Shown here: positions 3,046 through 20,778 of the stretch, one piece after another
Layout of the letters: every line of letters starts with the position of its first letter
Position numbering within the stretch: position 1 is the stretch's first letter
Assembly (NCBI RefSeq): GCF_000012925.1
Contig: NC_007517.1
Location: 1,470,001 to 1,502,000 of the forward strand
Source: Geobacter metallireducens GS-15
Lineage (GTDB): Bacteria > Desulfobacterota > Desulfuromonadia > Geobacterales > Geobacteraceae
Length of the DNA: 32,000 nucleotides
Direction: 5' to 3'
The notes under the pieces: generated by a model
Told to the model about the DNA's origin: nothing
What the model saw: only the letters and a program-made list of their open reading frames with translations
The model's database searches: none
Translations under genes and position numbers: made by a program

Positions 3046-4128
3046 ATGAAAAAAGCTCTCATTACCGGTATTACCGGACAGGATGGATCGTACCTCGCAG
3101 AACTGTTGCTGGAAAAAGGTTACGAGGTCCACGGCGTCAAGCGCAGGGCCTCTCTGTTTAACACGGATCGGATTGACCACCTCTACCAGGACCCCCACGA
3201 AACAGGGCGGCGTTTCGTGCTTCACTATGGCGACATGACCGATTCCACCAACCTGATCAGAATCATCCAGTCGGTCCAACCCGACGAGATATACAATCTG
3301 GCAGCACAATCCCACGTGGCGGTATCGTTTGAAACGCCGGAATACACCGCCAATGCCGATGCCATCGGCCCCCTGCGGATCCTCGAAGCGATTCGCATCC
3401 TCGGCCTGGAAAAGAAGACCCGCTTTTACCAGGCATCAACGTCCGAACTGTACGGTCTGGTTCAGGAAATCCCCCAGAAAGAGACGACCCCCTTCTACCC
3501 CCGCTCTCCCTATGCCGTTGCCAAGCTCTACGCCTACTGGATCACCGTCAACTACCGCGAATCATACGGTATCTATGGCTGCAACGGCATCCTGTTCAAT
3601 CACGAATCACCGGTGAGGGGGGAGACCTTCGTCACCCGCAAGATTACCCGCGCCTTGGCTCGCATCAAGCTGGGATTGCAGGAGTGCCTCTATCTGGGCA
3701 ACCTTGACGCAAAGCGCGACTGGGGGCATGCCCGGGATTATGTTGAAATGCAGTGGCTCCTGATGCAGCAGGATGAGCCTGAAGACTGGGTCATTGCCAC
3801 CGGTATCCAGTACAGCGTCCGTGACTTTGTCAACGCCGCTGCCGAAGAGTTGGGGATGAAGATAGCGTGGCAAGGGGCGGGAGTCAATGAGACCGGAACC
3901 GATCACTCCGGCAAGGTCATGGTCAAGGTCGATCCGCGCTATTTCCGCCCCACCGAGGTGGAGACCCTCCTGGGCGACGCGGCCAAGGCCAGGGAGAAAC
4001 TGGGGTGGGCTCCAAAAATCAGTTTCAGGGAACTGGTGTCCGAGATGGTGCGCGAGGACCTGAGAGCCGCCGAACGTGATGAGTTGGTAAAGAAACACGG
4101 CTACAAGGCGTTTGACCACCATGAATAA
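3046..4128 (+). CDS. gmd: GDP-mannose 4,6-dehydratase
   Basis: [30 protein letters not shown]..., [18 protein letters not shown] and [17 protein letters not shown] are collinear with bacterial Gmd. I chose ATG 3046 (GGAG 14 nt upstream) rather than the upstream ORF start at 2926. Confidence 0.93.
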
Positions 4129-5086
4129 GGATTCGCGAATCTTCGTTGCCGGGTCCCATGGGCTCGTGGGTTCCGCACTTGTCAGGCAATTGCGGTCCCG
4201 TGGGTATGTCAATCTCTTGCTTCCCGAGAAGAGGGAACTTGACCTGGCCCATCAGCAGGCCGTGGCGGACTTCTTTGCAAGTCAAAAACCCGACTACGTA
4301 TTCCTTGCTGCTGCCAAGGTCGGCGGCATCCATGCCAATAACACCTATCCTGCCGACTTCATCTACACCAACCTGATGATTCAGAACAACGTCATTCACC
4401 ACGCCTGGCTGAACGGCGTCAAACGGCTCCTCTTCCTCGGCTCATCCTGCATCTATCCGAAGCACGCACCGCAGCCCATGCAAGAGGAGCATCTCCTGAC
4501 CGGTCCCCTGGAACCCACCAACGAGCCCTACGCCATAGCGAAAATTGCCGGCATCAAGATGTGCGAATCCTACAACCGACAATATGGCACCAAATTTGTA
4601 GCAGTCATGCCTACCAATCTCTATGGTCCCGGCGACAACTTCCACCCCGAGAACAGCCATGTCCTCCCCGCGCTGATCCGGCGGTTCCACGAAGCCAAGA
4701 GGCAGAACGCTTCATCGGTTGTTGTCTGGGGAAGCGGCACACCTCGCCGGGAGCTGCTCTATGTTGATGACATGGCGGAGGGGTGTCTTCATGTCATGGA
4801 TTTAACGGATGATCAGCTTGCTTCGGAGCTGTTGAGCTACCCCAAGCCGTGTTTCGTGAATCTCGGCACGGGGCATGATGTCACCATCCGTGAACTGGCA
4901 GAAACAGTCCGTAATGTAGTCGGGTTTTCCGGCGACCTGGTATTCGATGCATCAAAACCCGATGGAACTCCCCGCAAGCTTCAAGACATCTCACGGATGC
5001 ACGGTCTAGGATGGCGGCACAGGGTGGAGCTTGAAGAGGGGATTCGGCGCACGTATCAGTGGTATGTGGAAAATTACGCAAAGTGA
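4121..5086 (+). CDS. fcl: GDP-L-fucose synthase (GDP-4-keto-6-deoxymannose 3,5-epimerase/4-reductase)
   Basis: [35 protein letters not shown] and [11 protein letters not shown] are collinear with Fcl/WcaG. ATG 4121 overlaps the gmd stop (ATGAATAA). The listed ORF start at 4112 is a TTG. Confidence 0.92.
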
Positions 5087-5098
5087 GGAAGTCGAACG

Positions 5099-5500
5099 TT
5101 GCGATCCGATCTTTCTGCATCTGTCGTAGATACCTTGAGGGCGGCGCTCGAGGATGAACCGCTGCTAGAACTGGCAGTACTGATCGGGAGTGGGGCAACG
5201 GGCCGCCGAGGCTTGGAAAGCGACTGGGACATCGCTATTCAGTGGGATCGGGATGTTTCCCTTCTTGGGCACCTGGGGCGAACCGAAAGCCTCCGAAGGC
5301 GGCTGGCGTCCATCCTTGGTATAACAGAAGACACCGTCGACCTGATCGACCTCCCCTCGGCCCGCTTGGCCATGCGCGCTGTGGTCGCAGAAGAGGGGAT
5401 CCCTCTTAAAGGGGAAGACGGACTTCCCTGGCAGCATTTTCTCCGACGAACCTGGCGCGATCTTGAAGATTACTACTGGGAGCAGACCTATGCGGCTTGA
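5099..5500 (+). CDS. MNT-type nucleotidyltransferase (antitoxin of HepT/MNT module 1)
   Basis: 133 aa. TTG start 7 nt after GAGGAAG. GSGATGR...SDWDIAI matches the GSxxxG...DxD minimal nucleotidyltransferase motif. It overlaps the downstream DUF86/HepT gene by 11 nt. Confidence 0.75.
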   Translation: MRSDLSASVVDTLRAALEDEPLLELAVLIGSGATGRRGLESDWDIAIQWDRDVSLLGHLGRTESLRRRLASILGITEDTVDLIDLPSARLAMRAVVAEEGIPLKGEDGLPWQHFLRRTWRDLEDYYWEQTYAA

Positions 5501-5918
5501 CCTGTACCAGGCTGAAACGGCATATATCGCCCAGGAACAAACGGCGCTGCTGGATGAGGCCCGTGCTATTTTGCTTTCTGAAAGGCCCCTGTCACGTCTT
5601 GAAGAGAACGGTGTACTCCATGCCATACAGGTGCTTGTAGAGAATGCCATCGGCAAGGCAAAGCAGTTGCTCAAGGCAAGCGGAAAGCAGGTGCCTGTAT
5701 CGGCATATGACAGCTTTCATGCCCTGGCTGACCTGGGGGTGATCAAGGTCAGCTCCCTTGCTGCGTGGAATGCCACCATAGGATTGCGTAACCGGCTAGT
5801 CCATGACTACATGAATATCGACATGGGCCGGATTTTAGAACTTGTCAGAAATGAACAGTACCGGTTTGTGACGGAGTTCCTCATGTCGCCTGTGCAGGAA
5901 GTGAGTGATAAAGCGTAA
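5490..5918 (+). CDS. HepT (DUF86/HEPN) toxin of module 1
   Basis: The RNRLVHDY match to the HEPN Rx4HxY motif is near the C-terminus. Start taken at the ATG overlapping the MNT stop (ATGCGGCTTGA); the ORF track start at 5463 is also possible. Confidence 0.8.
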   Translation: MRLDLYQAETAYIAQEQTALLDEARAILLSERPLSRLEENGVLHAIQVLVENAIGKAKQLLKASGKQVPVSAYDSFHALADLGVIKVSSLAAWNATIGLRNRLVHDYMNIDMGRILELVRNEQYRFVTEFLMSPVQEVSDKA

Positions 5919-5956
5919 ACGCTTTTGCGAGAATGAGAGAATTTCCTATTTTGGAT

Positions 5957-7270
5957 CACTACTGTCCGGTTAATAGTTGAATAAGTTCAGTTGGTTGCGC
6001 TCAGGATAATCAGCATTTCGCTTGAGAGCCTCCGCAACCAGCGATGAAATGGGCTTTTTCTCGAACAAGTTGACCTCCAGAATCTGTAGAAAAGTGTAGA
6101 GCGAACACGGAACCCCCAACTTCTTTTTCGTGATCGCCACCAGCAGATAGATGCACAAGGCAACCCATATCTGGCTCTTCACGGCATTGACTGACGTTCC
6201 GATGAACGACTTGATCCGCAGGTGCTGTTTGATCCATTTGAAAAACAGCTCCACCTGCCAGCGCTGCTTGTAAATCGCAGCCACCGTCGCTGCCGGAATC
6301 TCGAAGTTGTTCGTGAGAAATACGAGTCGCTTGTTCCGTTCTTTGTCAACATAGCTGACCCGGCGCAGTTTCTCCGGATACCCCTTTTTCGACTTCTGCG
6401 TCACCAGGGTGATAATCTGGTCTGCCCGTACACCTGATTCCTTGTCCTTCGGATGGGAATATAACCGCTGGCATTTCAGGTTGTCCTTTGCCCGAACTAC
6501 GAAGAATGCTCCCTGCTTGTGGATGGAGTGGAGCCGGGCAAAATCGACATACCCTCTGTCCATCGTGTAAATGGCATCCTTTGCAACCGGCAGATGGTCC
6601 AGCATCCTGACATCGTGGACCTTGCCAGTGGTAATAGTGACCCAGGTTGGAATGGGACCACGCAGATCAATGAGCGTATGCATCTTGACCGCCGCCTTGG
6701 TTTTGCGGAACTCGGCCCATGGGAACAGCGTAAGGCACAGGTCGATAGTGGTCGAGTCAAAGGCGTAGAGCGGTTGCGTAAGCTCAACGGCGATGGCATC
6801 AGCCTGGTACAGCTGCTGAGCTATGCCGATCAGTACATGACCGAAGTCTTGGAAGATACGCCAGTCCCTGCGCTCGTTCGCGTCGGCAAGGGTCGTGCGG
6901 GAGACATCACCACGAAAGCCGATGTGGTACAGCTTCTCCTGGTGGGAGTTCAGGCAGGTCTCGATATCCCGCAAGCTCTCACGGCCAGCCATCTGGGCAT
7001 AAGCCAGGCAGAGGAACTGGTCATAGGTCGAGAACTTCTTCTCCCGATACTCGCCACGGTGTCGGCGAACGCAGAGATTGAATTCGTACCGGGGCAGAAA
7101 CTGCAGAAGTTGTTTGAAAACGGTCGGACCGGTGTGCATTGCTCCCCTCCTGTAAAGGGAGGAAGGCTACACCCAGAACGAATTCATGTCGAAAAAAGAA
7201 CAATTGTGCCAAAGAGCAATAAAGTTCAACAAGTTACAGCTGTACAATCAAAGTTTACCGGACAGTAGTA
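5957..7270 (-). mobile_element. IS4-family insertion sequence, about 1.31 kb
   Basis: Terminal inverted repeats CACTACTGTCCGGT (5957-5970) and ACCGGACAGTAGTA (7257-7270) match 13/14. Perfect 9-bp direct duplication ATTTTGGAT (5948-5956 and 7271-7279). One DDE transposase ORF inside. Confidence 0.85.
5970..7139 (-). CDS. IS4-family DDE transposase
   Basis: 389 aa. The N-terminal FKQLLQFLPRYEF...DQFLCLAYAQMAGRESLRDIE region (DUF4372-like) and C-terminal YKQRWQVELFFKWIKQHLRIKSF are typical of IS4/IS5-superfamily DDE_Tnp_1 enzymes. Confidence 0.9.
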   Translation of the reverse strand: MHTGPTVFKQLLQFLPRYEFNLCVRRHRGEYREKKFSTYDQFLCLAYAQMAGRESLRDIETCLNSHQEKLYHIGFRGDVSRTTLADANERRDWRIFQDFGHVLIGIAQQLYQADAIAVELTQPLYAFDSTTIDLCLTLFPWAEFRKTKAAVKMHTLIDLRGPIPTWVTITTGKVHDVRMLDHLPVAKDAIYTMDRGYVDFARLHSIHKQGAFFVVRAKDNLKCQRLYSHPKDKESGVRADQIITLVTQKSKKGYPEKLRRVSYVDKERNKRLVFLTNNFEIPAATVAAIYKQRWQVELFFKWIKQHLRIKSFIGTSVNAVKSQIWVALCIYLLVAITKKKLGVPCSLYTFLQILEVNLFEKKPISSLVAEALKRNADYPERNQLNLFNY

Positions 7271-7274
7271 ATTT

Positions 7275-7299
7275 TGGATAACGATTCGGTCAGAAGGAT
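7275..7299 (+). pseudogene. 5' stub of the small coiled-coil (cc) gene family
   Basis: 25 nt are identical to 8218-8242 (TGGATAACGATTCGGTCAGAAGGAT), the first codons of the cc copy at 8217. Homology ends abruptly at 7300, and the IS4 element is inserted at its start. Confidence 0.6.
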
Positions 7300-7335
7300 A
7301 GGGCGGACGTATCAGTGGTATGTGGAAAATGTGAG
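7297..7335 (+). repeat. Duplicate of the fcl 3' end
   Basis: 24 nt are exact (7307-7330 = 5051-5074, ACGTATCAGTGGTATGTGGAAAAT), with weaker similarity on both sides. It would encode RTYQWYVEN, the fcl C-terminus. Confidence 0.85.
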
Positions 7336-7371
7336 CAAGGATTCCCGCCGGTCAACTTGATGGATTGCGAT

Positions 7372-7761
7372 ATGGAACAGTTGAAGACTGAGCTTGCACC
7401 GATTTTCGCAAAATACCATGACGAGATTGTCGCCGCCTATCTTTTCGGTTCGACTGCCAGTGGGCTGACATCCTCTTTAAGCGATATTGATATTGCAGTG
7501 TTGCCGCGCAACACGGATAAAGTGAGTGGAGCAACACTGAAATTTCATCTATACGCAGACCTGTGCCGAAAACTGAACAGAAACGATATCGATTTGATGA
7601 TGATGGGGCTTTCAGGCAATCTTATCTTGAATGATGAGATTCTCCGGAATGGGAAACTTCTCTACGTGACCGACCATGATGCCCGAGACGACTTTGAGCT
7701 CAAGGTTCTCCATAGGTGCACGGATTTCAAATTTCAGCGTCGATACGCCATGGGGGTTTAG
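7372..7761 (+). CDS. MNT-type nucleotidyltransferase (antitoxin of module 2)
   Basis: LFGSTASG...SDIDIAV motif. Start taken at MEQLK (ATG 7372); ATG 7360 is an alternative, and the ORF-track start at 7315 reads through the fcl-end duplicate. The stop overlaps the HepT GTG by 1 nt. Confidence 0.75.
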   Translation: MEQLKTELAPIFAKYHDEIVAAYLFGSTASGLTSSLSDIDIAVLPRNTDKVSGATLKFHLYADLCRKLNRNDIDLMMMGLSGNLILNDEILRNGKLLYVTDHDARDDFELKVLHRCTDFKFQRRYAMGV

Positions 7762-8177
7762 TGGAGCGCATACGGCAGAAGATAGGAAGAATCAACGAAC
7801 ATCTTTCTATAATTCGCGCAATCAAGGATGATTGCAGTCGCAAATTTGCTGTTGATCCGATATATCGCGGTGCATTGCTCCACTATCTCTATCTGCTTTC
7901 TGATGGTTGCATCGTGCTGGCAGAGTTGGTAATAAAGCATAAAGGGTTACGACTCCCTCAGTCTTATGCGGAATCGTTCGATATCCTCGGTGAGAGCAAG
8001 GTACTTGATGAGGACTTCGCTTATCGTTTTGCGAGTATTGCCGGTTTCCGTAACTTTCTCGCCCATGACTATGAAAAGATTGATCAGGAAGTAATTTGTG
8101 GCGCGATAATGAACAGCCTGAATGATGTAGATATCTTCCTGCAACATATTCGTAAGTCAATGGGGTTAGTTGGTTGA
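7761..8177 (+). CDS. HepT (DUF86/HEPN) toxin of module 2
   Basis: FRNFLAHDY matches Rx4HxY. An in-frame GTG at 7761 overlaps the MNT stop (TAGTG). The ORF-track ATG at 7716 lies inside the MNT gene. Confidence 0.8.
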   Translation: MERIRQKIGRINEHLSIIRAIKDDCSRKFAVDPIYRGALLHYLYLLSDGCIVLAELVIKHKGLRLPQSYAESFDILGESKVLDEDFAYRFASIAGFRNFLAHDYEKIDQEVICGAIMNSLNDVDIFLQHIRKSMGLVG

Positions 8178-8216
8178 TTAAATTGCTCAAGAGCAGTTGG
8201 AAGAGAATATTGCATC

Positions 8217-8481
8217 ATGGATAACGATTCGGTCAGAAGGATTGAGGAACAGTTCAAGCATCACATTGGTGTTCTTTTCTGAAGATTGTCAGAGCAAGCT
8301 CGATCTGGTGGTTGAAGGACAGCAGATGATTGTGGAGAAGGTAGACCGACTGGGAACCCGGATGGATCGTCTTGACACCAAGGTTGATACGTCGGATGTC
8401 AAAGTAGATGTTGTATTTGCCGATCTTTGCGTCCACCGGGCCGACACTGCGGTCCATCACGGGGTGTATCGGGTGAAGTAA
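8217..8481 (+). pseudogene. cc-family gene, frameshifted
   Basis: ATG 8217 gives MDNDSVRRIEEQFKHHIGVLF then a stop at 8280. The rest (EDCQSKLDLVVEGQQMIVEKVDRLGTRMDRLDTKVD...HRADTAVHHGVYRVK) continues in another frame and is collinear with the intact copy at 8531. The shift maps to the T run at 8275-8278. Confidence 0.65.
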
Positions 8482-8530
8482 GGGTAATTCCCGGGCTTTA
8501 AACCGGCATCTGGCACAATGGAGATGATAA

Positions 8531-8806
8531 ATGGCACTTGACGAAATTGACCTGAAAAAGATAGAGGAGCTGTTTAAGCATCAGATCGGCATACTGAATG
8601 AGAGTTTTCAGCACAAACTCGACATCGTCGTTGAGGGACATCAGATGCTGAACGAAAAGGCCGACCGCCTGGAAGGGCGGATGGACCGATTGGAAGGACG
8701 GATGGACCGATTGGAGGTCAAGCTCGATGCTGTTGCTACCGACCTTGCCGCCCACCGCGCCGACACCGAGGCGCATCATGGGGTGTATCGGGTGAAGGAA
8801 GGGTAA
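8531..8806 (+). CDS. Small coiled-coil protein (cc family), unknown function
   Basis: 91 aa. GGAG 7 nt before the ATG. LEGRMDR heptad repeats and a C-terminal AHRADTEAHHGVYRVKEG. Paralogous pieces lie at 7275, 8217, 9196 and 9941. I cannot assign a family name. Confidence 0.6.
   Translation: MALDEIDLKKIEELFKHQIGILNESFQHKLDIVVEGHQMLNEKADRLEGRMDRLEGRMDRLEVKLDAVATDLAAHRADTEAHHGVYRVKEG
8669..8710 (+). repeat. 21-bp tandem repeat inside the cc gene
   Basis: CTGGAAGGGCGGATGGACCGA (8669-8689) and TTGGAAGGACGGATGGACCGA (8690-8710) match 19/21, followed by a degenerate third unit. Each unit encodes one LEGRMDR heptad. Confidence 0.75.
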
Positions 8807-8865
8807 TAGGGAAAGAGTGGAAGTGCCTCTCATTCTCCTAATTGATCAAAGGTTGCGGAGATGTT

Positions 8866-9162
8866 ATGAGACCGACAAAAGAAGAACTTTTAGCTTTTTT
8901 GCAGAGCAAGAAAACAGATTTTCGCCAGGAATTTACCATACAGAAACTAGGTGTCTTTGGCTCATTTGCCCGCGGTACGGCCACTGATGAAAGTGATATT
9001 GATCTTGTCGTAGAACTTGAGAAACCAGACTTATACAATCTGATCGGCATCAAACAAGCGGTTGAAGAGGAGTTCGGAGGAAAGGTCGATGTGGTACGAC
9101 TGCGTCCTCATATGAACAGCATGCTCAAAAAGCGGATTGAACAGGATGCTATTTATGTTTGA
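8866..9162 (+). CDS. MNT-type nucleotidyltransferase (module 3, no intact toxin partner)
   Basis: GSFARGTATDESDIDLVVEL motif. ATG 8866 follows GGAGATG. The usual overlapping HepT start follows, but only as a stub. Confidence 0.75.
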   Translation: MRPTKEELLAFLQSKKTDFRQEFTIQKLGVFGSFARGTATDESDIDLVVELEKPDLYNLIGIKQAVEEEFGGKVDVVRLRPHMNSMLKKRIEQDAIYV

Positions 9163-9289
9163 CCGCGAGCTGCTGGTAGCTGACATCACCAACATCATCT
9201 GGGATCGACGCCGTTGCGGCCTACCTTTCCGCCCACAGGGCCGACACACCGAGGCGCATCATGGAGTGTATCGGGTGAAGGAAGGGTAG
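9155..9289 (+). pseudogene. Chimera of a HepT 5' stub and a cc-family 3' end
   Basis: The ATG overlaps the MNT3 stop (ATGTTTGA), as in HepT genes, and gives MFDRELLVADITNIIWD. From about 9196 the DNA is homologous to the cc 3' block, with a 1-nt insertion in GACACACCGAGG. The 44-codon ORF ends in TEAHHGVYRVKEG. Confidence 0.6.
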
Positions 9290-9366
9290 GGGGGGGCTCC
9301 GCAGCTGCCAGTTCTCTGAAATGGATCCAGAACCGTTACGAAGGGGCACCGGAAAGGTCAAGTATC

Positions 9367-9597
9367 ATGGAACGCATGATTCAGATTCATATCGAGAAAT
9401 TGCCTGAAGGGGTGTATCTAGCGACGTCAGATGACATTCAGGGACTCGTTGTCCAAGGTCGTACCGTCAGTGAAACATTGGAAATTGCTCGTGACGTGGC
9501 ACGACGCTTGATTGAAGCGCAGACGGAACGAAAAAAAACCATAAAGCTGAAACCCATCAGAAAGAGTTTTGATCTGGATTTGGTAGTCGGAAACTGA
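9367..9597 (+). CDS. hicB: HicB-family antitoxin (short form)
   Basis: MERMIQIHIEKLPEGVYLATSDDIQGLVVQGRTVSETLEIARDVARRLIE matches the HicB/UPF0150 fold pattern (...PG...G.T.eEa...a.eai). It ends 1 nt before hicA. The long N-terminal extension in the ORF track (from 9214) runs through the cc remnant. Confidence 0.75.
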   Translation: MERMIQIHIEKLPEGVYLATSDDIQGLVVQGRTVSETLEIARDVARRLIEAQTERKKTIKLKPIRKSFDLDLVVGN

Positions 9598-9598
9598 T

Positions 9599-9829
9599 AT
9601 GGGGCGCCTGTCGGGATTTCGTTATCGTGAGATTATCAAACGTCTCAAGGCCTTCGGATTCGTTTTCGATCGACAGGCGGCAGGGAGTCACGAGATTTGG
9701 TACAACCCTGATAAAGACAAGTATACGACGATTCCGAACCACGCCGGCGACATGCCTGAAGGGACTCTTAGGGCGATACTGAAACAGGCTGAAATAGATC
9801 CTGAAGATTTTCTGAAAACCGGCAAGTAA
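9599..9829 (+). CDS. hicA: HicA-family mRNA interferase toxin
   Basis: 76 aa. KRLKAFGFVFDRQAAGSHEIW...TIPNHAGDMPEGTLRAILKQAEI is the YcfA/HicA signature (GSH...P.H...l..GTl..IlkQagl). Confidence 0.85.
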   Translation: MGRLSGFRYREIIKRLKAFGFVFDRQAAGSHEIWYNPDKDKYTTIPNHAGDMPEGTLRAILKQAEIDPEDFLKTGK

Positions 9830-9882
9830 GATGATGCTGTTATTTTCCGAGTGAAGGGCGAAGTGGGAGCTTTTTTTGCCGG

Positions 9883-9932
9883 GAAATATGGGGAGTGTCC
9901 CTCATTTCCCCTCCTCATTTCCCCTCATTTCC
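9883..9932. repeat. Repeat A: 26-bp imperfect palindrome followed by CTCATTTCC units
   Basis: GAAATATGGGGAGTGTCCCTCAT (9883-9905) is identical over 23 nt to 10162-10184. GAAAT...ATTTC and GGG...CCC arms pair. CTCATTTCC recurs at 9901, 9914 and 9924. Confidence 0.75.
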
Positions 9933-9940
9933 CCCAGACT

Positions 9941-10075
9941 GATGATCGTTTTGATCTTGTTGACCTGAAGATCGAGACTCTGAACAAGAAGATCAGCGCC
10001 GTTGCAGCTGATCTTTCCGCCCACCGGTGCGACGCCGAGGCGCATCATGGGGTGTGTTGGGTGAAGGAAGGATAA
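9941..10075 (+). pseudogene. cc-family 3' fragment
   Basis: DDRFDLVDLKIETLNKKISAVAADLSAHRCDAEAHHGVCWVKEG aligns with the last third of the 8531 protein. There is no N-terminal part. The upstream portion of ORF 9851-10075 is a translation of repeat A. Confidence 0.6.
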
Positions 10076-10161: not shown

Positions 10162-10199
10162 GAAATATGGGGAGTGTCCCTCATCTCCTCATCTCCCTC
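10162..10199. repeat. Repeat B (same family as repeat A)
   Basis: 23-nt exact match to repeat A, then CTCATCTCC variants of the 9-mer. Confidence 0.75.
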
Positions 10200-10208
10200 T
10201 TTATTGTC

Positions 10209-10273
10209 GGAAAAAATGGAGAGAGTCCCTCGTTTCCCCCCCTCATTTCCTCCCATTTCCTCCTCATTTCCCT
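10209..10273. repeat. Repeat C (diverged copy of repeats A/B)
   Basis: GGAAAAAATGGAGAGAGTCCCTCGTTTCC followed by CTCATTTCC / CCCATTTCC / CTCATTTCC units. It ends 13 nt before the first AT-rich glycan gene. Confidence 0.65.
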
Positions 10274-10285
10274 CATGACAGCATA

Positions 10286-11251
10286 ATGAGAACTGACAAT
10301 AATACTTTGTGGGAGTGTCTTTTGAAAATCCATCCACTTTCCGACGTGCAGGCAAAGCAGATCGGCCAGGGCACCAGTATCTGGCAGTATGTAGTGGTGT
10401 TGCCGGGTGCTGTGATTGGTTCAGATTGTAATATCTGTTCACATTGTTTCATTGAAAATGCCGTAGTTATCGGTGATCGGGTCACGATCAAGTGTGGTGT
10501 GCAGATCTGGGATGGGTTGCGTGTTGAGGATGACGTGTTCATTGGCCCCAATGTCACGTTTACCAACGATCTGTTTCCAAGGAGCAAGCAACACCCTAAA
10601 GAGTTTGCCAAAACAGTCATTCAAAAGGGCGCTTCTATAGGTGCCAATGCCACTATCCTTGCCGGTAGCACAATTGGCAGGAATGCCATGGTTGGCGCGG
10701 GTGCTGTGGTTACGAAAAGCGTCCCGCCAAATGCCATCGTGGTGGGGAACCCAGCACGAATAACCGGTTATGTTTCGACGATTCCTGCTCAGCAAAAGCA
10801 TTCCGAGATTGAAGTAGGTGAGAATATAGGAACTGTTGGTCAGTCGGCAATTCCGGGCGTGCAGTTTGTCCGTTTGCCTATCATCCCTGACCTGCGGGGC
10901 AGTCTCTCCTTTGCAGAATTCGGTCAATATCTCCCTTTTATCCCTAAACGCTATTTTCTTGTCTTTGACGTGCAGAGTCGTGAAGTGCGCGGCGAGCATG
11001 CACACAAGGAACTGCACCAGTTCCTGGTTTGTGTCAAGGGGGCCTGTTCGGTCATGGTTGATGACGGTAACTGTCGCGAAGAATATATCCTCAATACGCC
11101 AGGCGCGGCTTTGCATATCCCTCCTCTGGTCTGGGGCGTACAGTACAAATATTCTCCAGATGCAGTTCTGATGGTGCTTGCTTCGGATGTCTACAAACCT
11201 GAAGATTACATTAGGGATTATGACCAGTTTATTGCCTTGGTGAAGAAATGA
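10286..11251 (+). CDS. WxcM-like bifunctional protein: N-terminal hexapeptide-repeat N-acetyltransferase (FdtC-like) fused to C-terminal dTDP-4-keto-6-deoxyhexose 3,4-ketoisomerase (FdtA-like)
   Basis: The N-terminal half has left-handed beta-helix repeats ([42 protein letters not shown]). The C-terminal half (RGSLSFAEF...[29 protein letters not shown]...YIRDYDQF) is a cupin of the FdtA/WxcM C-terminal type. Confidence 0.8.
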
Positions 11252-12354: not shown

Positions 12355-13619
12355 ATCTCATCAAAACAAGTCTGCTCAATGGTATTGCTGTTGTAATTAG
12401 ATTGTTTACTTCTATTGGCCTGAACAAGGTTCTTGCATTATATGTGGGGCCTGCAGGTTATGCAGTTATCGGTCAATTCCAGAATGCTATGGGCATGTTA
12501 ACCTCCTTCGCCAGTGCTGGAATAACTACCGGTGTAACCAAGTATACTGCCGAATATTTTGATGATGAGGAGCAGCAGCACACAGTATGGCGCACTGCAG
12601 GAACTATAGTTTTCTGCGGTTCATTGTTTGCCTCACTCGGCATTGCACTTTTTCACCGTTCACTAGCCCGAATGTTTCTTAAGGATGAAGCCTACGCAGG
12701 TGTATTCCTCTGGCTGGCTGCTACGCTGATTCTTATGGTTTTTAATGGGCTTCTTTTAGCTATTTTGAACGGTAAGAAAGATATTCGCCGTTATGTAACG
12801 GTAAATATTACTGGAAGCTTGGTATCGTTGATAGTAACTGGCATCTTGGCCAAAGTTTGGGGATTGTATGGCGCGCTGGTTGCCTTAGCCATCAATCAGT
12901 CAATTGTTTTTATAGTCACGTTTGCAATGTGCCAACGAGCGGCTTGGTTTCGTGTTGCCCATATCATCGGTCCTATAGACCTGATAGCAGCACGTAACTT
13001 GGGCAAATTCATGCTCATGGCGCTTACCACTGCTGCTGTTGGCCCAACGAGCCAAATCATCGTTCGGGATCATCTGGCAACAAAATTCGGTTGGACAAGT
13101 GCAGGCCACTGGCAGGCAGTAACAAAAATTAGCGATATTTATTTGATGCTTATAACAACAACTCTTAGTGTTTATTATCTCCCGAAGCTGTCTGAGATCA
13201 GAGATATTACAGAGATAAAGAAAGAAATCCTGCGAGGATATAAACTTATTCTTCCTCTTACTGTAAGTGGGGCTAGTATTATTTATTTATTACGAGACTG
13301 GATAGTTGAAATATTGTTTACAAAAGACTTTTATCCAATGACTGAGTTGTTTGCATGGCAACTTTCCGGGGATGTTGTTAAAATTTGCAGTTGGTTGCTG
13401 GCTTATGTAATGTTAGGCCGGGCTTTGGTGAGAACCTTTATTTTTACTGAGATTCTATTCGGCACTACATTTATTGGGTTTACTTTTGTTTTTACGAAAT
13501 ATGTTGGGCTAAAAGGTGCAACTGTAGGGTATTTTATCAATTATGTTGTGTACTGGATTACCATGATATATTTAATACCAAAGTTCATAAATGGACGAAG
13601 GCACATATCAGCAATTTGA
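12351..13619 (+). CDS. wzx: Wzx-type lipid-linked oligosaccharide flippase, WzxE-like
   Basis: 422 aa and polytopic. [13 protein letters not shown]...[21 protein letters not shown]...[10 protein letters not shown] and [12 protein letters not shown] are collinear with enterobacterial WzxE as I recall it. The TTG start overlaps the upstream stop. Confidence 0.8.
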
Positions 13620-13640
13620 CGGTATATTGGTCGTAAACAC

Positions 13641-14876
13641 ATGAGAGATACGGTAATAATATTTTGTAAATGTATGAATATGGGAGGGACAGAAACCCTG
13701 ACCATTCGTCTATTAAATTGGTATAGACAAAATAATTACAGATCAATACTTCTTACATTAGACGAAATAACAAGCATGACATTGCTAGAAGATATAAAAA
13801 AAATTAATATAGAACATTATGTTTATAATCACAATAAAAGAGAATTTTATTCGTGCAAATCTAACAAATTGACATTTAATTCAAAAGACAATTGTTTGAT
13901 AATAACTCATTTTATGCCAGAGTTTTTTGAATGTTTTTCTATGTTAACAGAATCAAAATATAGTTGTAAATTTAGACACACTATCTACATTGTACATCCG
14001 TATTCCACTTATATGGTTAGTAAGAAAATTGCTTTTATTGGGAAAGGATTGATAGACTATTTGTTGAAAAAAAATGTTATAGTTTTTATGGATGAAACTT
14101 GCATTGAAAAATGTGTGAATTATTACGGACTGATACCTGAAGAGTATGATCTAACAGTACTCAGGCTTCCCATATCAGTGAACTGTGAAAATATAATTGC
14201 AAATAGAAATAAAATATTTAATATATTAACTGTTTCACGATTCGAATTCCCTTTTAAGGGTTATGTTATCGGGTTGATAAAATCATTTGAAAAACTCTAT
14301 ACCGTTAACAATAACATATCATTAACAATCATTGGTTATGGGGAGGGAAAGGATTCTGTGCTTAGGGCAATCCGTGACATGCAGCCAGTGGTTGCAGAAA
14401 AAATTAGTGTTATAGACCAAGTCCCTTATAGTAAGTTGAATGAATATATTTTGAAATCTGACGTTTTTGTGGGTATGGGTACAACCATTCTTGATGCTGC
14501 TCAGATGAGTAAAATTTGCATAGTTGCTATTGCATACCAAATGTCTGATCATGCAGCTGGCTTTCTCCATGATAATTATAAAAACATTGGAGAGATATAC
14601 GATAAAAGTAATAATTACCCCTCTATTTATAACTTATTGAATAAAGCACTAGATTTCAATAATGATGAATTTAAATATTATTCTGATTACACGTATAGAA
14701 TAATAAAGGAATGCTATAATATTGATGTCATAGCGCCAAAACTATGGCAAAACACTTCATATTTATTTACAATAAATGCATATTTACTTGTCAAATTATT
14801 AGCAGCGTTAAATGTCCTAATTACGCTTATAGCTAAGAAGTTTATTAAACGTGAATATAATGCGAATGGTAATTAA
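13641..14876 (+). CDS. Putative GT-B fold glycosyltransferase (GT4-like), weak assignment
   Basis: 411 aa and very AT-rich. It has an N-terminal MGGTETLTIRLL and a C-terminal-domain pattern ILTVSRFEFPFKGY...LTIIGYGEGK...DVFVGMGTTILDAAQMSKICIV resembling GT4 enzymes. It lacks a clean ExxxxxxxE motif. A hydrophobic C-terminal tail is present. Confidence 0.45.
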   Translation: MRDTVIIFCKCMNMGGTETLTIRLLNWYRQNNYRSILLTLDEITSMTLLEDIKKINIEHYVYNHNKREFYSCKSNKLTFNSKDNCLIITHFMPEFFECFSMLTESKYSCKFRHTIYIVHPYSTYMVSKKIAFIGKGLIDYLLKKNVIVFMDETCIEKCVNYYGLIPEEYDLTVLRLPISVNCENIIANRNKIFNILTVSRFEFPFKGYVIGLIKSFEKLYTVNNNISLTIIGYGEGKDSVLRAIRDMQPVVAEKISVIDQVPYSKLNEYILKSDVFVGMGTTILDAAQMSKICIVAIAYQMSDHAAGFLHDNYKNIGEIYDKSNNYPSIYNLLNKALDFNNDEFKYYSDYTYRIIKECYNIDVIAPKLWQNTSYLFTINAYLLVKLLAALNVLITLIAKKFIKREYNANGN

Positions 14877-15078
14877 TGTCGGTTTATGATATTGGCATTT
14901 ATAACTGCTCATTTCTGAATTAAGTAGTTTTAAATTACATATTTTGAACGATTTGCATACCTTTTTTTCATCAACATCGTAACAACATAACTTAACTATA
15001 TTAGCACTTTATATTGAATTTATTGTTTTATCATATATATAATACTCATCTCTAAGGATTCTGTGCAGAGTTTACTAA

Positions 15079-15963
15079 ATGGACATTCACGTATTATCCT
15101 ACGGATTGGGCAATCAGCTTTCTCAATACGCTTTTTTCATTAACAGGCGACAACTAATGCAGCGTGCTTATGCTTTTTACGCGTTTAAGCAACACAACGG
15201 ATACGAGCTTGATCGTATATTCGGTCTTAAAGAAGGACTGCCTTGGTATTTGCAATTTGTACGAGTTGTATTCCGTCTTGGAATATCCCGCCGATTCTAC
15301 TCTAAGCGAACGGCCGATTTTGTACTTTCACTCTTCCGTATAAAAGTCATAGATGAAGCGTACAATTATGAATTCGATCCTTCACTACTAAAGCCTTGGT
15401 TTGGAATACGTATACTTTATGGTGGATGGCACGACTCCCGTTATTTTCACCCTTCTGAAGCTGCTGTGCGTACTGCTTTCTCATTCCCGCCACTCGATGA
15501 TGTAAACGATGCTATCCTTCAGCAAATTGATGCCGTTTACGGTGTTTCTATTCACGTGCGTCGCGGGGACTATTTGAAGGGGATAAACTCGAATCTTTTT
15601 GGAGGTATTGCTACTCTTGAATATTACAGGAATGCAATAGGTTGGGCCATTACTTATTGTAAGCATAGAAGTTTAGAGATTAAATTTTATGTCTTCTCTG
15701 ACGATATTGACTGGTGTAAGCAAAATCTTGGATTAAGGGATGCCGTTTATGTTAGCGGTAACAGCAAGACTGATTCGTGGAAAGATATCTTACTTATGTC
15801 TCACTGTCGTGCCAATATTATTGCAAATAGTACTTTCAGTTGGTGGGCAGCATGGTTAAATCAGCAGCCAAATAAAGTAGTAATTTGTCCAACAAAATTT
15901 ATTAACACAGATTCTCCAAATCAAACAATTTATCCAGCTGCTTGGCATCAAATAGAAGGTTGA
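15079..15963 (+). CDS. GT11-family alpha-1,2-fucosyltransferase
   Basis: GLGNQLSQYAF, IHVRRGDY and ANSTFSWWAAWLN are the three conserved motifs of bacterial alpha-1,2-fucosyltransferases (FutC/WbgL type). Confidence 0.88.
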   Translation: MDIHVLSYGLGNQLSQYAFFINRRQLMQRAYAFYAFKQHNGYELDRIFGLKEGLPWYLQFVRVVFRLGISRRFYSKRTADFVLSLFRIKVIDEAYNYEFDPSLLKPWFGIRILYGGWHDSRYFHPSEAAVRTAFSFPPLDDVNDAILQQIDAVYGVSIHVRRGDYLKGINSNLFGGIATLEYYRNAIGWAITYCKHRSLEIKFYVFSDDIDWCKQNLGLRDAVYVSGNSKTDSWKDILLMSHCRANIIANSTFSWWAAWLNQQPNKVVICPTKFINTDSPNQTIYPAAWHQIEG

Positions 15964-15971
15964 ATCCAGCT

Positions 15972-17294
15972 ATGGTTATTAAAAAAATTATATTTACTAT
16001 AGTTGCTCGTAATTATTATGGTCTTGCACAGGTGTTGCGGCAATCTATTATCAAATACAACGATGACATAACATTCTATGCATTTATTGCTGATGGTATT
16101 CCTAGTGATAATCGTGCACTGTTCAGTGCTGATGCTATTGATGTAAATGTAGTAATGCAGCACTTTGTTGCTCCTGAAAAGTTACAGGAGATGGCTTTTA
16201 AATACAACCTTACTGAATACTGTACTGCTATTAAACCGTTCTGTTTTGAGTACCTTTTTAACCAAACAGATGTTGATCAAATTATTTATCTAGATCCAGA
16301 TATTTTAGTTTTTTCTTCACTGACTCCCGTTTTTGATTGTCTGCAATATGCCTCAATCGTGCTGACCCCACACATTTTATTCCCATCCTCGCTTGAGGGC
16401 AAACGGTCTGATAGAGGGATTATGGCCACTGGTATTTACAACCTCGGCTTTATAGGGGTTTGTCGATCTAATACTGGATTTACATTTATTAGATGGTGGA
16501 GGCAGCGGCTTCTTGATCAGTGTTTCATTGACAGCCATGACGCTTTATTTACTGACCAAAAATGGGCTGATTTTATTCCAGGACTCTTCCCTAGCGAAGA
16601 TGTTTGTGTGCTAAGGCATTCTGGCACAAACATTGCTCCTTGGAATTTTCATGAGAGGGAAGTATTGATTACAGAAGAGGATAGTCTAGTTGTACGACGT
16701 CGACTAGATCCAAATGAATCATTGTTACTTAATAATGAGTGTAAGCAGGAACCAATTATATTTGTGCATTTCTCTGGTTTTGACTACACTTTGTTATGTA
16801 AAGGCGAGGCAGTTCAGTATAACATCAGTGGCTTAAGTATATATAATGATCTTCAGTCGTTAATTGATATATATGTGGCATCTATCCAAGCACAAAAGGA
16901 AACAGTCCTCAAGTTTTTAGGCATGACCTATGGCTACGAATCATTTCAAGATGGCAGCCTAATAATTTCTTTTCATCGTCGCTTATATCGTTCAGCTGTT
17001 GAGTCTGGGCACAATGTCGGCAACCCATTTAGCACTGATAATCATAGTTTTCATAGTCAGCTTGTTAAACATAAACTTTTATTAAACAGGGCCGTGGTTA
17101 AGAAATCTGATCGATCTAATAAATATAATTATCCGAATCTAAGCGATAAATTGATTATAATTAATAGAATGATGAGAGTAATTAGAAAAATCATTGGTTT
17201 AGAAAACTTTCTTTTGTTGTTGCGTTTAATGCGCCCGTATTCTCGAGCAGAGGCACAACTTCATAATGTTTATCAGAATATGAATAAATTATAG
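15972..17294 (+). CDS. Putative GT-A fold (GT8-like) glycosyltransferase with an uncharacterised C-terminal extension
   Basis: N-terminal IIFTIVARNYYGLAQVLRQSI... and the DxD-type motif YLDPDILVF suggest a nucleotide-diphospho-sugar transferase fold. I recognise nothing in the C-terminal 150 aa or so. Start taken at ATG 15972 (MVIKK), just after the GT11 stop. Confidence 0.5.
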   Translation: MVIKKIIFTIVARNYYGLAQVLRQSIIKYNDDITFYAFIADGIPSDNRALFSADAIDVNVVMQHFVAPEKLQEMAFKYNLTEYCTAIKPFCFEYLFNQTDVDQIIYLDPDILVFSSLTPVFDCLQYASIVLTPHILFPSSLEGKRSDRGIMATGIYNLGFIGVCRSNTGFTFIRWWRQRLLDQCFIDSHDALFTDQKWADFIPGLFPSEDVCVLRHSGTNIAPWNFHEREVLITEEDSLVVRRRLDPNESLLLNNECKQEPIIFVHFSGFDYTLLCKGEAVQYNISGLSIYNDLQSLIDIYVASIQAQKETVLKFLGMTYGYESFQDGSLIISFHRRLYRSAVESGHNVGNPFSTDNHSFHSQLVKHKLLLNRAVVKKSDRSNKYNYPNLSDKLIIINRMMRVIRKIIGLENFLLLLRLMRPYSRAEAQLHNVYQNMNKL

Positions 17295-17377
17295 CAATCT
17301 ATTATAGTTTCTTGATGTTACCTTGTCGAATTGATAACAATGATAGTTGATTGTATTATATATAATAGTTGGTTGAT

Positions 17378-18487
17378 ATGCATGATATAGTATATATATT
17401 ACTATTTGTATTTGTTGCTGTCTCTGCGTTTGTTAGCAGTCTATGCCAAGATAAGGCTCTTAAATTTATACTGTTTTCAGCATCGACATTTTTTATGAGT
17501 GCTATAATAGCATTCCGATGGGAAATAGGTACAGATTGGAATTCGTACTACGAATATTTTGTAGGAATAAAAAATGGGTCAGGAAGTTCATATGATAATC
17601 ATTTTGATATAGGATTTTATTTGCTTAACTTTGTTATTGCAAATATAAACGGGAATTACACAATATTTTTAATAGTAACTACAGTTTTATCCACCGTTTT
17701 GGTGAACTATATCATTTATAAAAAATCGAATAATCCGCATCTTGGTCAATTGATTTTCTTGGGAAACTATTTACCAATCCATTTTATGGGAAGTATAAGA
17801 AGGTCGATAGCGATTACATTCGTATTCTTATTTCTTATTTATTCAATACAATATAAAAATAAGATCAAATCTTATATCATTATGATGTTCGCTTTTGCCC
17901 AGCATAAAACGTCTATAATAGGAATAACTAAATTAATTGTGCCAAAGAAACGTTTTTCTGTAAAGGTTATAATTGCTTTAATTGGTGCTGCATATTTTAT
18001 CAACTATATTGGTTTAATTGACCTTATCTTGGAAAAATTATTAATGATTACCGTTGGAGGTCCTGATATTGGGCTTGTGAAAACTATAGCGAACTATTCA
18101 GGTGAAAACTATAAATTATACTCTCCAGAAAATGTAAATCCACAGATGCAATCATTATTATCCATGATAAAAAAAATAATTTATTTATTCTTTTTCACAA
18201 GAGGATTAGCTCGCAATTCAAATTCGTTAGATGATATTTCACTCAACATATATGTAATTGGAATTATGATTTATACACTTTTTATTGGTGCTATGGTTAT
18301 ACAGGTTTTGTCAGTGTATTTTCTATTTATGGAAGTTCTATTAGCTTCTCGTGTGTACAGTAAATTGCGTTTATATGAGAAGAGAGTTTTTCTAATTTAC
18401 ATATTAGTAATATCGTATGCATCCTACGATTCCAATCTTTCAGTGTTCCCAGAATTGTTTAGCCCATATAGGAGTGTTTTATTTTAG
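17378..18487 (+). CDS. wzy: EpsG-family O-antigen/exopolysaccharide polymerase (Wzy-type)
   Basis: About 369 aa, about 10 predicted hydrophobic helices. AFRWEIGTDWNSYYEYF matches the EpsG-family signature (R..vG.D...Y). Extreme AT richness is typical of wzy genes. ATG 17378 preferred over TTG 17369. Confidence 0.7.
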   Translation: MHDIVYILLFVFVAVSAFVSSLCQDKALKFILFSASTFFMSAIIAFRWEIGTDWNSYYEYFVGIKNGSGSSYDNHFDIGFYLLNFVIANINGNYTIFLIVTTVLSTVLVNYIIYKKSNNPHLGQLIFLGNYLPIHFMGSIRRSIAITFVFLFLIYSIQYKNKIKSYIIMMFAFAQHKTSIIGITKLIVPKKRFSVKVIIALIGAAYFINYIGLIDLILEKLLMITVGGPDIGLVKTIANYSGENYKLYSPENVNPQMQSLLSMIKKIIYLFFFTRGLARNSNSLDDISLNIYVIGIMIYTLFIGAMVIQVLSVYFLFMEVLLASRVYSKLRLYEKRVFLIYILVISYASYDSNLSVFPELFSPYRSVLF

Positions 18488-18569
18488 CAGGTTGTCGAAA
18501 AACTAAACCGCTTTGATTCTGATCTCAGAGCCTTTTATTTATTCAACTAAACTATGGGACAGCAGTGAG

Positions 18570-19592: not shown

Positions 19593-19651
19593 GCGAAATT
19601 ATTAATATCTGCTTTGCAAATGAGTGCAAACTTTATACTGAGTAGGTTATA

Positions 19652-20641: not shown

Positions 20642-20652
20642 CATGTTGCATT

Positions 20653-20770
20653 ACTGCTGCCTCAGAAAAGCATACGGTTTTAAATCGATCAAGTGCCTAC
20701 AACGGCTCTATATCATACACTTGGCGAATTGCCGGAACCTGTTGTAATCCACAGATTCAGATGAAGTCTC
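20653..20770 (+). mobile_element. Remnant: 3'-terminal 115 bp or so of a related ISL3 element
   Basis: Collinear with 22035-22150 of the adjacent full element at roughly 80 percent identity by eye (e.g. ATCAAGTGCCT, CTATATCA.ACACTTGGCGA.TTGCC.GAACC, CCACAGATTC). It includes a right-IR-like end and begins 12 nt after the glycosyltransferase stop. Confidence 0.75.
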
Positions 20771-20778
20771 ATATTTAT

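Follow-up and report, generated by a model that had tools for sequence, protein, structure and literature searches.

Background

In toxin-antitoxin-chaperone (TAC) systems an extra small gene, encoding a SecB-like chaperone, stands beside toxin-antitoxin (TA) pairs of several families; the three genes keep a constant order within a single operon, and it is an extension of the antitoxin that requires the chaperone. The Bdr proteins, which are membrane-anchored and encoded on Borrelia plasmids, exemplify another type of family: multi-copy small proteins with conserved ends and variable internal repeats, encoded in recombination-prone DNA that is rich in paralogues. In integrons, TA modules are thought to limit the loss of cassettes. 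The sedentary chromosomal integron arrays with TA modules, such as the Vibrio superintegron (e.g. Richard et al. 2024, PMC13108822), are long series of co-oriented, small and mostly promoterless cassettes that are rich in type II TA modules and have a repeated element between them. Makarova, Wolf and Koonin (2009, PMC2701414), in the passages on TA 'islands', describe closely spaced TA pairs of different families at one spot and explain such clusters by preferential incorporation or by transfer of multi-TA cassettes. Here we report on a stretch of 32,000 nucleotides of Geobacter metallireducens GS-15 (GCF_000012925.1, contig NC_007517.1, positions 1,470,001 to 1,502,000; this whole stretch is called the window) that partly resembles each of these: a small gene for a coiled-coil protein (gene and protein are both called cc; 91 aa in the window) alternates there, intact or in pieces, with three MNT/HepT modules (nucleotidyltransferase antitoxin and HEPN RNase toxin) and one HicAB module, 3' of fcl.

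The cc arrays share with integrons the small co-oriented cassettes and the repeated element, but neither IntI nor attI nor attC hairpins were found in the scans made here, the repeated element is a translated gene, and those junctions that could be resolved are homologous or illegitimate, not site-specific. As far as the enrichment in TA genes goes, the TA cassettes of chromosomal integrons are the closest parallel. With respect to the TA 'islands', the searched passages of PMC2701414 mention no conserved non-TA separator gene and do not contain the term 'coiled-coil', whereas here cc alternates with the TA modules and marks breakpoints. Unlike the chaperone gene of TAC, cc has no fixed side and no coupling to TA genes, and it often occurs without a TA pair; unlike the Bdr proteins, to which it has no sequence relationship, cc is chromosomally encoded and lacks a membrane segment. 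Most likely, the cc repeats are places where recombination adds, removes and scars cassettes, and not a third part of the TA modules.

Results

Copies of cc and toxin-antitoxin modules in the window

The locus (Gmet_1311-1324) lies within a sugar-gene cluster and was mapped with open reading frame (ORF) lists, repeat finding and a tblastn search of the 91-aa cc protein against the window (5.0-10.3 kb). All positions refer to the window, features lie on its plus strand unless stated otherwise, and loci used for comparison carry an L number. The array is bordered on the left by fcl (4112-5086; a GDP-fucose synthase-type epimerase gene with Pfam Epimerase/GDP_Man_Dehyd domains and a 77% identical orthologue in L044) and on the right by a wxcM/FdtA-type gene (Gmet_1324, WxcM, 10286-11251), at which the low-GC O-antigen genes begin.

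The inventory of cc comprises one intact gene, one pseudogene, two 3' fragments and one 5' stub. The intact gene (8531-8806, 91 aa) is preceded by a GGAG ribosome-binding site. In the pseudogene (8217-8484) the reading frame shifts near 8276 and a TAA stands in place of the penultimate Glu codon; over 69 aa its identity to the intact copy is 61%. One 3' fragment (9203-9289) is 98% identical to the intact copy over its last 43 nt and carries a 2-nt insertion (AC) at about 9246; the other (9941-10075; tblastn E = 1e-11) represents a second cc subtype (ERFDLVDLKI...). The 5' stub (7275-7299) is a 25-nt exact copy of 8218-8242; this run, already noticed in a preliminary description that was made from the letters alone, was recovered by repeat finding, and for exact 25-mers in 5.6 kb our own arithmetic gives a chance expectation of about 1e-8. 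According to Aklujkar et al. (2009, PMC2700814) the whole G. metallireducens genome has only four copies, all of them at this locus, and their clustering can hardly be due to chance.

The TA genes between these pieces form four modules. MNT1 (5099-5500; Pfam Polbeta, 4.9e-8; GSxxxG...DxD motif; orthologues in L010 and L002, 77% identical) overlaps HepT1 (5490-5918; HepT-like, 8e-20; RNRLVH motif; gene call in L080) by 11 nt. MNT2 (Gmet_1316, 7372-7761; 78% identical orthologue in L010) overlaps HepT2 (Gmet_1317, DUF86, 7761-8177; orthologues 88% identical in L010 and 71% in L042) by 1 nt; both are Pfam matches and, like the overlaps, are found in the gene calls of L080. MNT3 (Gmet_1320, 8866-9162; Pfam match and gene call) is an orphan antitoxin. 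The fourth module consists of a HicB-like antitoxin of 76 aa (Gmet_1321, 9367-9597; DUF1902 at 23 bits versus a cut-off of 22) and a HicA toxin (Gmet_1322, 9599-9829; Pfam HicA_toxin, E = 1e-21), a pair with orthologues in L038 (68-71% identical; HicB 71%). MNT1, HepT1, MNT2, HepT2, MNT3 and HicA all passed the Pfam cut-offs. The MNT/HepT (type II/VII) identity is further borne out by the FGSTASG..SDIDIAV, RNRLVH and RNFLAH motifs and the overlapping pairs, the third module being without its toxin, and the HicAB identity by the HicA_toxin domain beside a HicB-type antitoxin. The TA assignments in the window are matched by gene calls made independently on a public contig of this species, and the supplementary tables of PMC2700814 give Gmet_1316/1317 as nucleotidyltransferase/DUF86 and also list 1320, 1321, 1322 and 1324 (WxcM). 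With small coordinate corrections we reproduced the earlier map of TA modules and cc pieces at 5.1-10.1 kb, and the paralogues are indeed highly divergent, as had been stated: the MNTs share only a catalytic motif of about 20 aa, and HepT1 and HepT2 are 30% identical.

Several junctions in the array look like scars. An IS4-family element on the minus strand (5957-7270), recognised by its transposase (5970-7139; DDE_Tnp_1, DUF4372), its terminal inverted repeats and a 9-bp target duplication (ATTTTGGAT, at 5948-5956 and 7271-7279), is inserted at the start of the cc 5' stub; without it, a cc copy would start about 40 nt 3' of HepT1, as one does with HepT2. The stub breaks off at codon 9, and the final 12 codons of an fcl gene are attached to it; this duplicate of the fcl 3' end (7296-7330) matches 5040-5074 at 32 of 35 nt and, with its three mismatches, does not come from the resident fcl. 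We infer that the stub and the fcl duplicate mark illegitimate recombination; a step in GC content lies at the same point. A foreign segment of the type fcl'-MNT2-HepT2-cc...O-antigen, arranged as in L042, would here have been illegitimately joined at 7296-7299 to a resident fcl-MNT1-HepT1-cc. Downstream, a short ORF (Gmet_R8003, 9155-9289) shares an ATG-TGA overlap with MNT3 and consists of 17 codons followed by the first cc 3' fragment. The 17 codons, earlier read as a HepT stub, are too short for an assignment to HepT; a toxin origin is plausible, from the overlap with MNT3 and an in-frame fusion in L002 (see below) only, and the toxin of MNT3 would then have been lost through a deletion that ended inside cc. 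A cc piece after every TA module, as reported for the window, is likewise found in L010 and L042, but does not hold generally.

The repeated element is a translated gene without a family name

In the genome paper (PMC2700814, Table S4 and Fig. S8f) four cc 3' ends, situated 3' of Gmet_1317, 1320 and 1322, are listed as Gmet_R8001-R8004, 'predicted short RNAs, group 8'. They are the 3' ends of one intact (Gmet_R8002) and three broken copies (Gmet_R8001, the pseudogene; Gmet_R8003 and Gmet_R8004, the two 3' fragments) of a gene that is protein-coding and under purifying selection. For 41 inter-locus pairs the median ratio of nonsynonymous to synonymous substitution rates (dN/dS) is 0.13 (range 0.06-0.43), with 0.07 for one clean pair, length differences among the copies are confined to repeat units (the central heptads and about 11 residues at the N-terminus), and 35 aligned 3' ends display the period-3 conservation that marks wobble positions. 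The invariant residues use all synonymous codons among 68 intact copies (His: CAC 44, CAT 24; Arg: six codons), and codon identity at positions with the same amino acid is family-wide 0.43 in the N-terminal and 0.44 in the C-terminal block; across the family the 3' end is kept as protein and its synonymous sites vary freely. That Gmet_R8001-R8004 are short regulatory RNAs and the cc ORF incidental, as the annotation of 2009 would have it, is extremely improbable in view of these data: RNAalifold returned 0 consensus pairs for the 35 sequences, single-sequence folds of the 3' ends were no better than those of shuffles (z +0.3 to -1.6), Rfam matched nothing in the region, whether the limit was the gathering score or E <= 1, the coding signal extends across the full ORF, and homology spans the whole 250-450 nt of that ORF in hundreds of genomes. 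We have therefore rejected the small-RNA identity, there being no conserved structure and a clear coding signal.

The cc product has a length of about 85-150 aa, an invariant AHRxDTExH motif and a disordered basic tail. In an alignment of 28 sequences, conserved blocks at the N-terminus and the C-terminus (the latter ...AVAADLxAHRADTEAHHGVYRVKE) enclose heptads that vary in number, and an AlphaFold2 model built on 82 sequences predicts one continuous helix (residues 5-81, pLDDT 92) with a disordered tail behind it. Among 1.84 billion representatives, a profile search recovered 268 clusters at 50% identity (E < 1e-10), none with an informative domain fusion and essentially all of them stand-alone proteins of 60-220 aa; the relatives comprise 573 matches in 90% clusters, mostly from Geobacter and Geobacteraceae. 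The exact cc protein of the window is encoded on contigs of GCA_018531165.1 and GCA_000243475.2 and in many sequencing-run assemblies. There was no match above cut-off in Pfam or NCBIfam; two sub-threshold Pfam entries, DUF7310 (20.8 bits versus 40) and XhlA (15.5 versus 34.7), concerned the heptad region only and were rejected as identities, both being below the gathering threshold. The Protein Data Bank contained no relatives by sequence profile or by Foldseek of the AlphaFold2 model, PADLOC and PHROGs gave coiled-coil noise only, and no relatives were present in the viral contigs of IMG/VR or the plasmids of PLSDB. Neither the locus tags nor a TA-associated coiled-coil family gave a match in literature searches. 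The suspicion that the coiled-coil protein belongs to no named family is thus confirmed by profile and structure searches, and cc is a real protein family without a name.

The association with toxin-antitoxin genes is local and crosses phyla

A census in which one genome per species was scanned yielded 79 loci, from Geobacteraceae, other Desulfuromonadales, Syntrophia, Nitrospirota, Acidobacteria, Binatia and others. They contain 126 cc units (hidden Markov model, HMM, versus six-frame translations), all co-oriented within each locus; 25 of the 79 loci hold two to six units, and the fragments comprise 12 3' and 13 5' pieces. For the neighbours, same-strand ORFs of at least 55 aa were compared with Pfam. 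The 51 ORFs located between cc units included six MNT, three HepT and two PIN genes, besides HEPN, HicA, BrnT, ParE, DUF433/DUF5615 and Mut7-C. Upstream of the first unit (<= 1.1 kb; 69 flanking windows, 139 ORFs) at least 22 TA genes were found (among which MNT 8, HepT 4 and HEPN, Phd, UPF0175, DUF3368 and Unstab_antitox 2 each), and downstream of the last unit (<= 1.1 kb; 59 flanking windows, 133 ORFs) at least 14, including MNT 4, HicA 3, HicB 2, HepT 2, RelB and UPF0175. In all three sets type II TA families dominate. Identically built control windows at a distance of 3.5-4.6 kb (87 windows) had no TA match among their 134 ORFs. The association is also found in the 23 loci that are labelled as other lineages (Nitrospirota, Syntrophia, Acidobacteria and others), where we encountered HEPN (3), MNT, DUF433, DUF5615, PIN and Phd (2 each), RelB, HicA, VapB, ParE and more. 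The positional link that had been proposed for the window thus holds across genomes and phyla: it is real, local, family-wide and two-sided, and at the same time far from universal.

The limits of the link are visible in the same data. A Pfam TA match was present in only about a fifth of the flanking windows per side, and two loci, L054 and L035, are tandems of cc only. TA-like pairs, as estimated with overlapping small ORF pairs, lay upstream of cc in 30% and downstream in 25% of cases (p = 0.56); this proxy is noisy, 15% of the control windows being positive, and the Pfam-based control is to be preferred. The gaps between cc and TA genes measure 19-136 nt, without translational coupling, whereas the TA partners overlap one another. 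Promoter and terminator scans found nothing tied to the cc pieces, with counts equal to those of shuffled controls.

Two further classes of genes recur beside cc and TA genes: proteins of the 23S-rRNA-intervening-sequence type (bAvd-like, four-helix) and PD-(D/E)XK nucleases (PDDEXK_3). One gene of this group lies between gmd and fcl in L042 (3297-3659). In L012, from a metagenome-assembled genome of the Geobacteraceae, the segment 4179-7806 holds a large ORF, two cc genes, a gene of the GDP-mannose-dehydratase/epimerase family (42% identical to the gmd of the window) and a third cc gene, and no TA pair; cc therefore inserts between polysaccharide genes by itself too.

Related genomes differ by blocks that end inside cc

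The window carries a pair of transfer RNA genes, tRNA-Gln(UUG) and tRNA-Glu(UUC) (1254-1464), that marks a syntenic flexible locus: L010, L002, L085 and L086 have the pair too, placed upstream of their arrays and behind the same kor operon. The array starts directly after tRNA-Glu in other Geobacter genomes, and about 200 nt after it in L010. No repeats of the tRNA-Glu 3' end were found, and a tRNA-targeting island with att repeats was rejected on that basis.

Recombination at cc copies is directly evidenced by a comparison of L085 (G. benzoatilyticus, CP071382) with its relative L086, whose left flanks are 96% and right flanks 88% identical. In L085, tRNA-Glu is followed by cc1, a gene for an MNT/HEPN fusion, cc2 (5'-truncated), cc3, cc4 and a gene of 1086 aa. 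L086 has a single cc, the body of which matches cc1/cc2 at 0.97-1.00 (40-nt windows), while its last bases and the downstream flank are those of cc4. This chimeric gene is therefore the product expected of a crossover between direct repeats that removed (or, inversely, inserted) the block cc-TA-cc-cc, and the anticipated difference between related genomes, cassette blocks with boundaries inside cc, is met with here. The same L086 gene has lost about 100 nt, comprising the leader and the first 11 codons, through a deletion at a TTTCA microhomology. The cc3 paralogue of G. benzoatilyticus-type strains measures 118 (L093, 1173-1529), 126 (L085, 6502-6882) or 159 aa (L087, 4403-4882), and these length differences are likely caused by a change of repeat number between strains; in L085, cc3 contains tandem N-terminal repeats of about 11 residues (SDDFSRKLDAQ).

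The L010 array starts with a cc 3' fragment, a cc copy, an MNT and a HepT gene with an in-frame stop, and another cc copy; then come the MNT1 orthologue with a HepT1 that is truncated after 36 aa and joined to the remnant of another ORF, a 40-nt cc tail and a cc copy; and it ends with the MNT2/HepT2 orthologues and two further cc copies. Two of its cc copies, which flank a decayed block, can be told apart by heptad number only; their near-identity continues for about 35 nt upstream and about 100 nt downstream of the gene. The orthologous MNT2-HepT2 pairs of the window and L010 adjoin different cc subtypes. In L042, the MNT2/HepT2 orthologues lie directly 3' of fcl, and on either side of the array lies a copy of the fcl 3' end with the adjacent MNT/HEPN-fusion gene, the two copies being 92% identical and the left one internally deleted. 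L002 carries an in-frame fusion of MNT, a truncated HEPN (profile positions 2-57 of 117) and a cc tail. When the window is compared with L010/L002, the 3' block has a synonymous identity of 0.75-0.79 and the 5' (N-terminal) block one of 0.45-0.55; such alike 3' ends within the Geobacter clade are consistent with gene conversion or with repeated exchange of the 3' end.

For a dedicated exchange system the searches gave negative results. No integrase or recombinase was detected in the 32-kb window, neither in the gene calls shared with L080 (Pfam) nor among the ten largest ORFs of the last 13.5 kb, and folds of nine inter-cassette segments as single-stranded DNA (z +1.4 to -2.9) revealed no attC-like hairpins, only a 9-bp hairpin being shared. 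An attC/integron identity of the array was rejected on both counts.

Non-coding repeats accompany some cc copies. In the L010 and L002 arrays a conserved box, GGGGAAGTTAGTCAACAAATTAACAACGTCCCC, with a 9-bp imperfect hairpin, follows each cc stop codon (L010: 5857-5988, 7341-7410, 8245-8367, 8682-8802 and 10056-10165; in L002 likewise downstream of cc copies); k-mer enrichment retrieved it in 8-15 of 108 downstream flanks, so that it is specific to a lineage and not a family feature. In the window, the last cc fragment is bracketed by direct repeats (9872-9935, 10162-10195 and 10200-10263) with the core ATGGGGAGTGTCCCTCAT followed by C/T-rich pentamers, the longest pair being 83% identical over 64 nt. 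Among 84 loci the exact core is found in this genome only, and a similar sequence, GGGGGAGTGTCCCT, follows cc copies in L035. The pentamers may resemble the CCYTC pentanucleotide repeats of G. metallireducens that PMC2700814 terms 'class 4 global regulator sites'.

Composition and other genes of the window

GC content falls along the locus from 0.54-0.56 (gmd, fcl, MNT1, HepT1) via 0.47-0.50 to 0.30-0.38 in the O-antigen genes, and atypical GC content was listed for Gmet_1316-1321 (PMC2700814). The O-antigen/glycosyltransferase genes occupy 13000-21000, where GC content is 0.30-0.38 versus 0.56-0.64 in the flanks, which indicates a horizontally acquired polysaccharide cluster. Two ISL3-family transposase genes are present (1506-2833, with the ORF at 1606-2829, and 20849-22144). 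The first element lies between tRNA-Glu and gmd and has inverted repeats at about 1506-1530 and 2809-2833; it is not present in GCA_018531165.1 and is therefore a strain polymorphism. A gene for an AAA_14/DUF4143 ATPase (24288-25472) stands amid polysaccharide-synthesis genes.

Discussion

We consider it probable that cc is an independent gene family, the repeats of which mediate homologous and illegitimate recombination, and that addictive TA cassettes persist between its copies. In anaerobic bacteria the gene would have increased its copy number, with a common orientation, within small flexible islets; that of Geobacter adjoins tRNA-Gln/tRNA-Glu and the gmd-fcl polysaccharide genes. Because they are direct repeats, with 3' ends that are especially alike in the Geobacter clade, the copies would recombine, serving as substrates for homologous (unequal) recombination and gene conversion, and illegitimate deletions may often end in them too; the outcome would be chimeric copies, stubs of either end of the gene and the gain or loss of DNA between two copies. 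TA cassettes may prevail between and beside the copies because both land in the same islets and because addiction would resist repeat-promoted deletion. The modules would then decay toxin-first, and orphan antitoxins fused to cc tails would be left. Decay of the toxin first is the expectation for addictive modules, and cases are the MNT3 of the window with its stub, the fusion in L002 and, in L010, the truncated HepT1 and the HepT with an in-frame stop. A mechanism of the recA type is presumed, as are addiction as the cause of the enrichment and the direction of the individual events, and we think that the cc protein acts independently of the TA pairs. The idea put forward in the preliminary description, that cc is the recombination joint at which cassettes are exchanged, is thereby retained for a repeated gene used in homologous and illegitimate recombination, and abandoned for a dedicated site, in view of the free synonymous variation and the lack of attC and integrase in the sequences scanned.

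A number of observations weigh against this explanation. The events were reconstructed from a handful of genome comparisons, and it is from sequences that we infer the mechanism (recA or other) and the direction of gain or loss. One of the L086 junctions and the stub/fcl junction of the window are illegitimate joins at microhomology and not homologous crossovers. Three truncated cc tails (L002 6791, L010 8205, L042 about 7130), whose left-hand neighbouring sequences all differ, begin no more than 5 nt from one point, GACAC|CGAGGCG, and the 2-nt insertion at about 9246 in the window fragment falls exactly there; the events are few, and yet this clustering may indicate a degree of site specificity beyond that of random breakage. 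Co-localisation across phyla would equally result if cc and TA were functionally related, and recombination offers no role for the protein and no reason for several diverged paralogues under purifying selection.

The other half of the preliminary proposal, that cc is an unrecognised third component of type II TA modules, acting for instance as a generic scaffold, regulator or chaperone like the SecB-like protein of TAC, does not agree with the census, and we regard it as unlikely. The strong local association that crosses phyla speaks for it, as do the co-orientation with TA genes at 19-136 nt without predicted terminators in between and the disordered C-terminal tail that was twice fused in frame to truncated toxin ORFs. 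On the other hand, a three-component system would be expected to have a fixed order with tight spacing and one consistent TA family, and neither was found: cc has no side preference, is uncoupled from its neighbours, has a TA match in about a fifth of the flanking windows per side and occurs in cc-only tandems, and its partners belong to more than ten unrelated families (including MNT/HepT, HicAB, PIN, ParE, BrnT, Phd, RelB and DUF433), while orthologous MNT2-HepT2 pairs are combined with different cc subtypes. Moreover, a HEPN/MNT pair is reported as a two-gene, type II TA system in Shewanella oneidensis and in Escherichia coli (PMC4621449), and only G. uraniireducens and G. bemidjiensis, not the comparison genome G. 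sulfurreducens, are named as sharing the sequences (PMC2700814). Somewhat less doubtful, although still improbable, is that cc acts autonomously as a selfish or defence-type gene, for example as an abortive-infection factor or a solo factor resembling a toxin, and collects in the stress and defence islets that also harbour TA modules, a view that is compatible with recombination at its copies. It would fit the neighbourhood of diverse TA modules, PD-(D/E)XK nucleases and 23S-rRNA-IVP/bAvd-like genes, the diverged paralogues that are each under purifying selection and the tRNA-proximal, low-GC surroundings rich in insertion sequences; it fits less well with the mere coiled-coil noise in PADLOC and PHROGs, the absence of cc from IMG/VR viral contigs and PLSDB plasmids, and a predicted single helix without enzymatic or membrane domain.

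We judge it very unlikely that the arrays are an integron-like platform in which a dedicated site-specific recombinase acts on the cc 3' end or on a downstream box and cassettes are exchanged at cc boundaries. Co-oriented arrays with a repeated element between small cassettes, the conserved box after the cc stop codon in Geobacter arrays, the three tails and one 2-nt insertion at GACAC|CGAGGCG, and the unusual similarity that 3' ends of the Geobacter clade show at synonymous sites would all suit such a platform. However, no integrase or recombinase occurs among the scanned genes and ORFs of the window, the inter-cassette segments fold like shuffled ones save for one 9-bp hairpin, repeats of the tRNA-Glu 3' end are lacking, the cc 3' end is conserved family-wide as protein and not as DNA, the fragment starts are spread over HMM positions 45-80, the box is confined to a lineage, and the resolved junctions are crossovers in shared sequence or microhomology joins. 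There is only a slim chance, comparable to that of the third component, that the cc gene with the box after its stop is the repeat unit of an unrecognised, integrase-less platform that collects TA modules, or that the cc protein works in trans as a generic partner for antitoxins of many families; each of the two would account for the cc-TA link from Geobacter to Nitrospirota and Acidobacteria as well as the shared tail starts. Recombination at the copies of an independent gene family stays the explanation that we prefer.

Sequences that have been annotated since 2009 as putative small RNAs are now given a protein identity, and a widespread family of small proteins without a name is defined, with at least 268 clusters at 50% identity, purifying selection and a significant, specific co-location with type II TA modules across several phyla. 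The arrays also provide a concrete picture of how TA 'islands' may be built, scrambled and eroded without an integron. If it is true that cc interacts with TA systems or marks a dedicated platform, TA biology would gain a new element; otherwise the locus would be a tidy case of repeat-driven islet dynamics beside an O-antigen locus.

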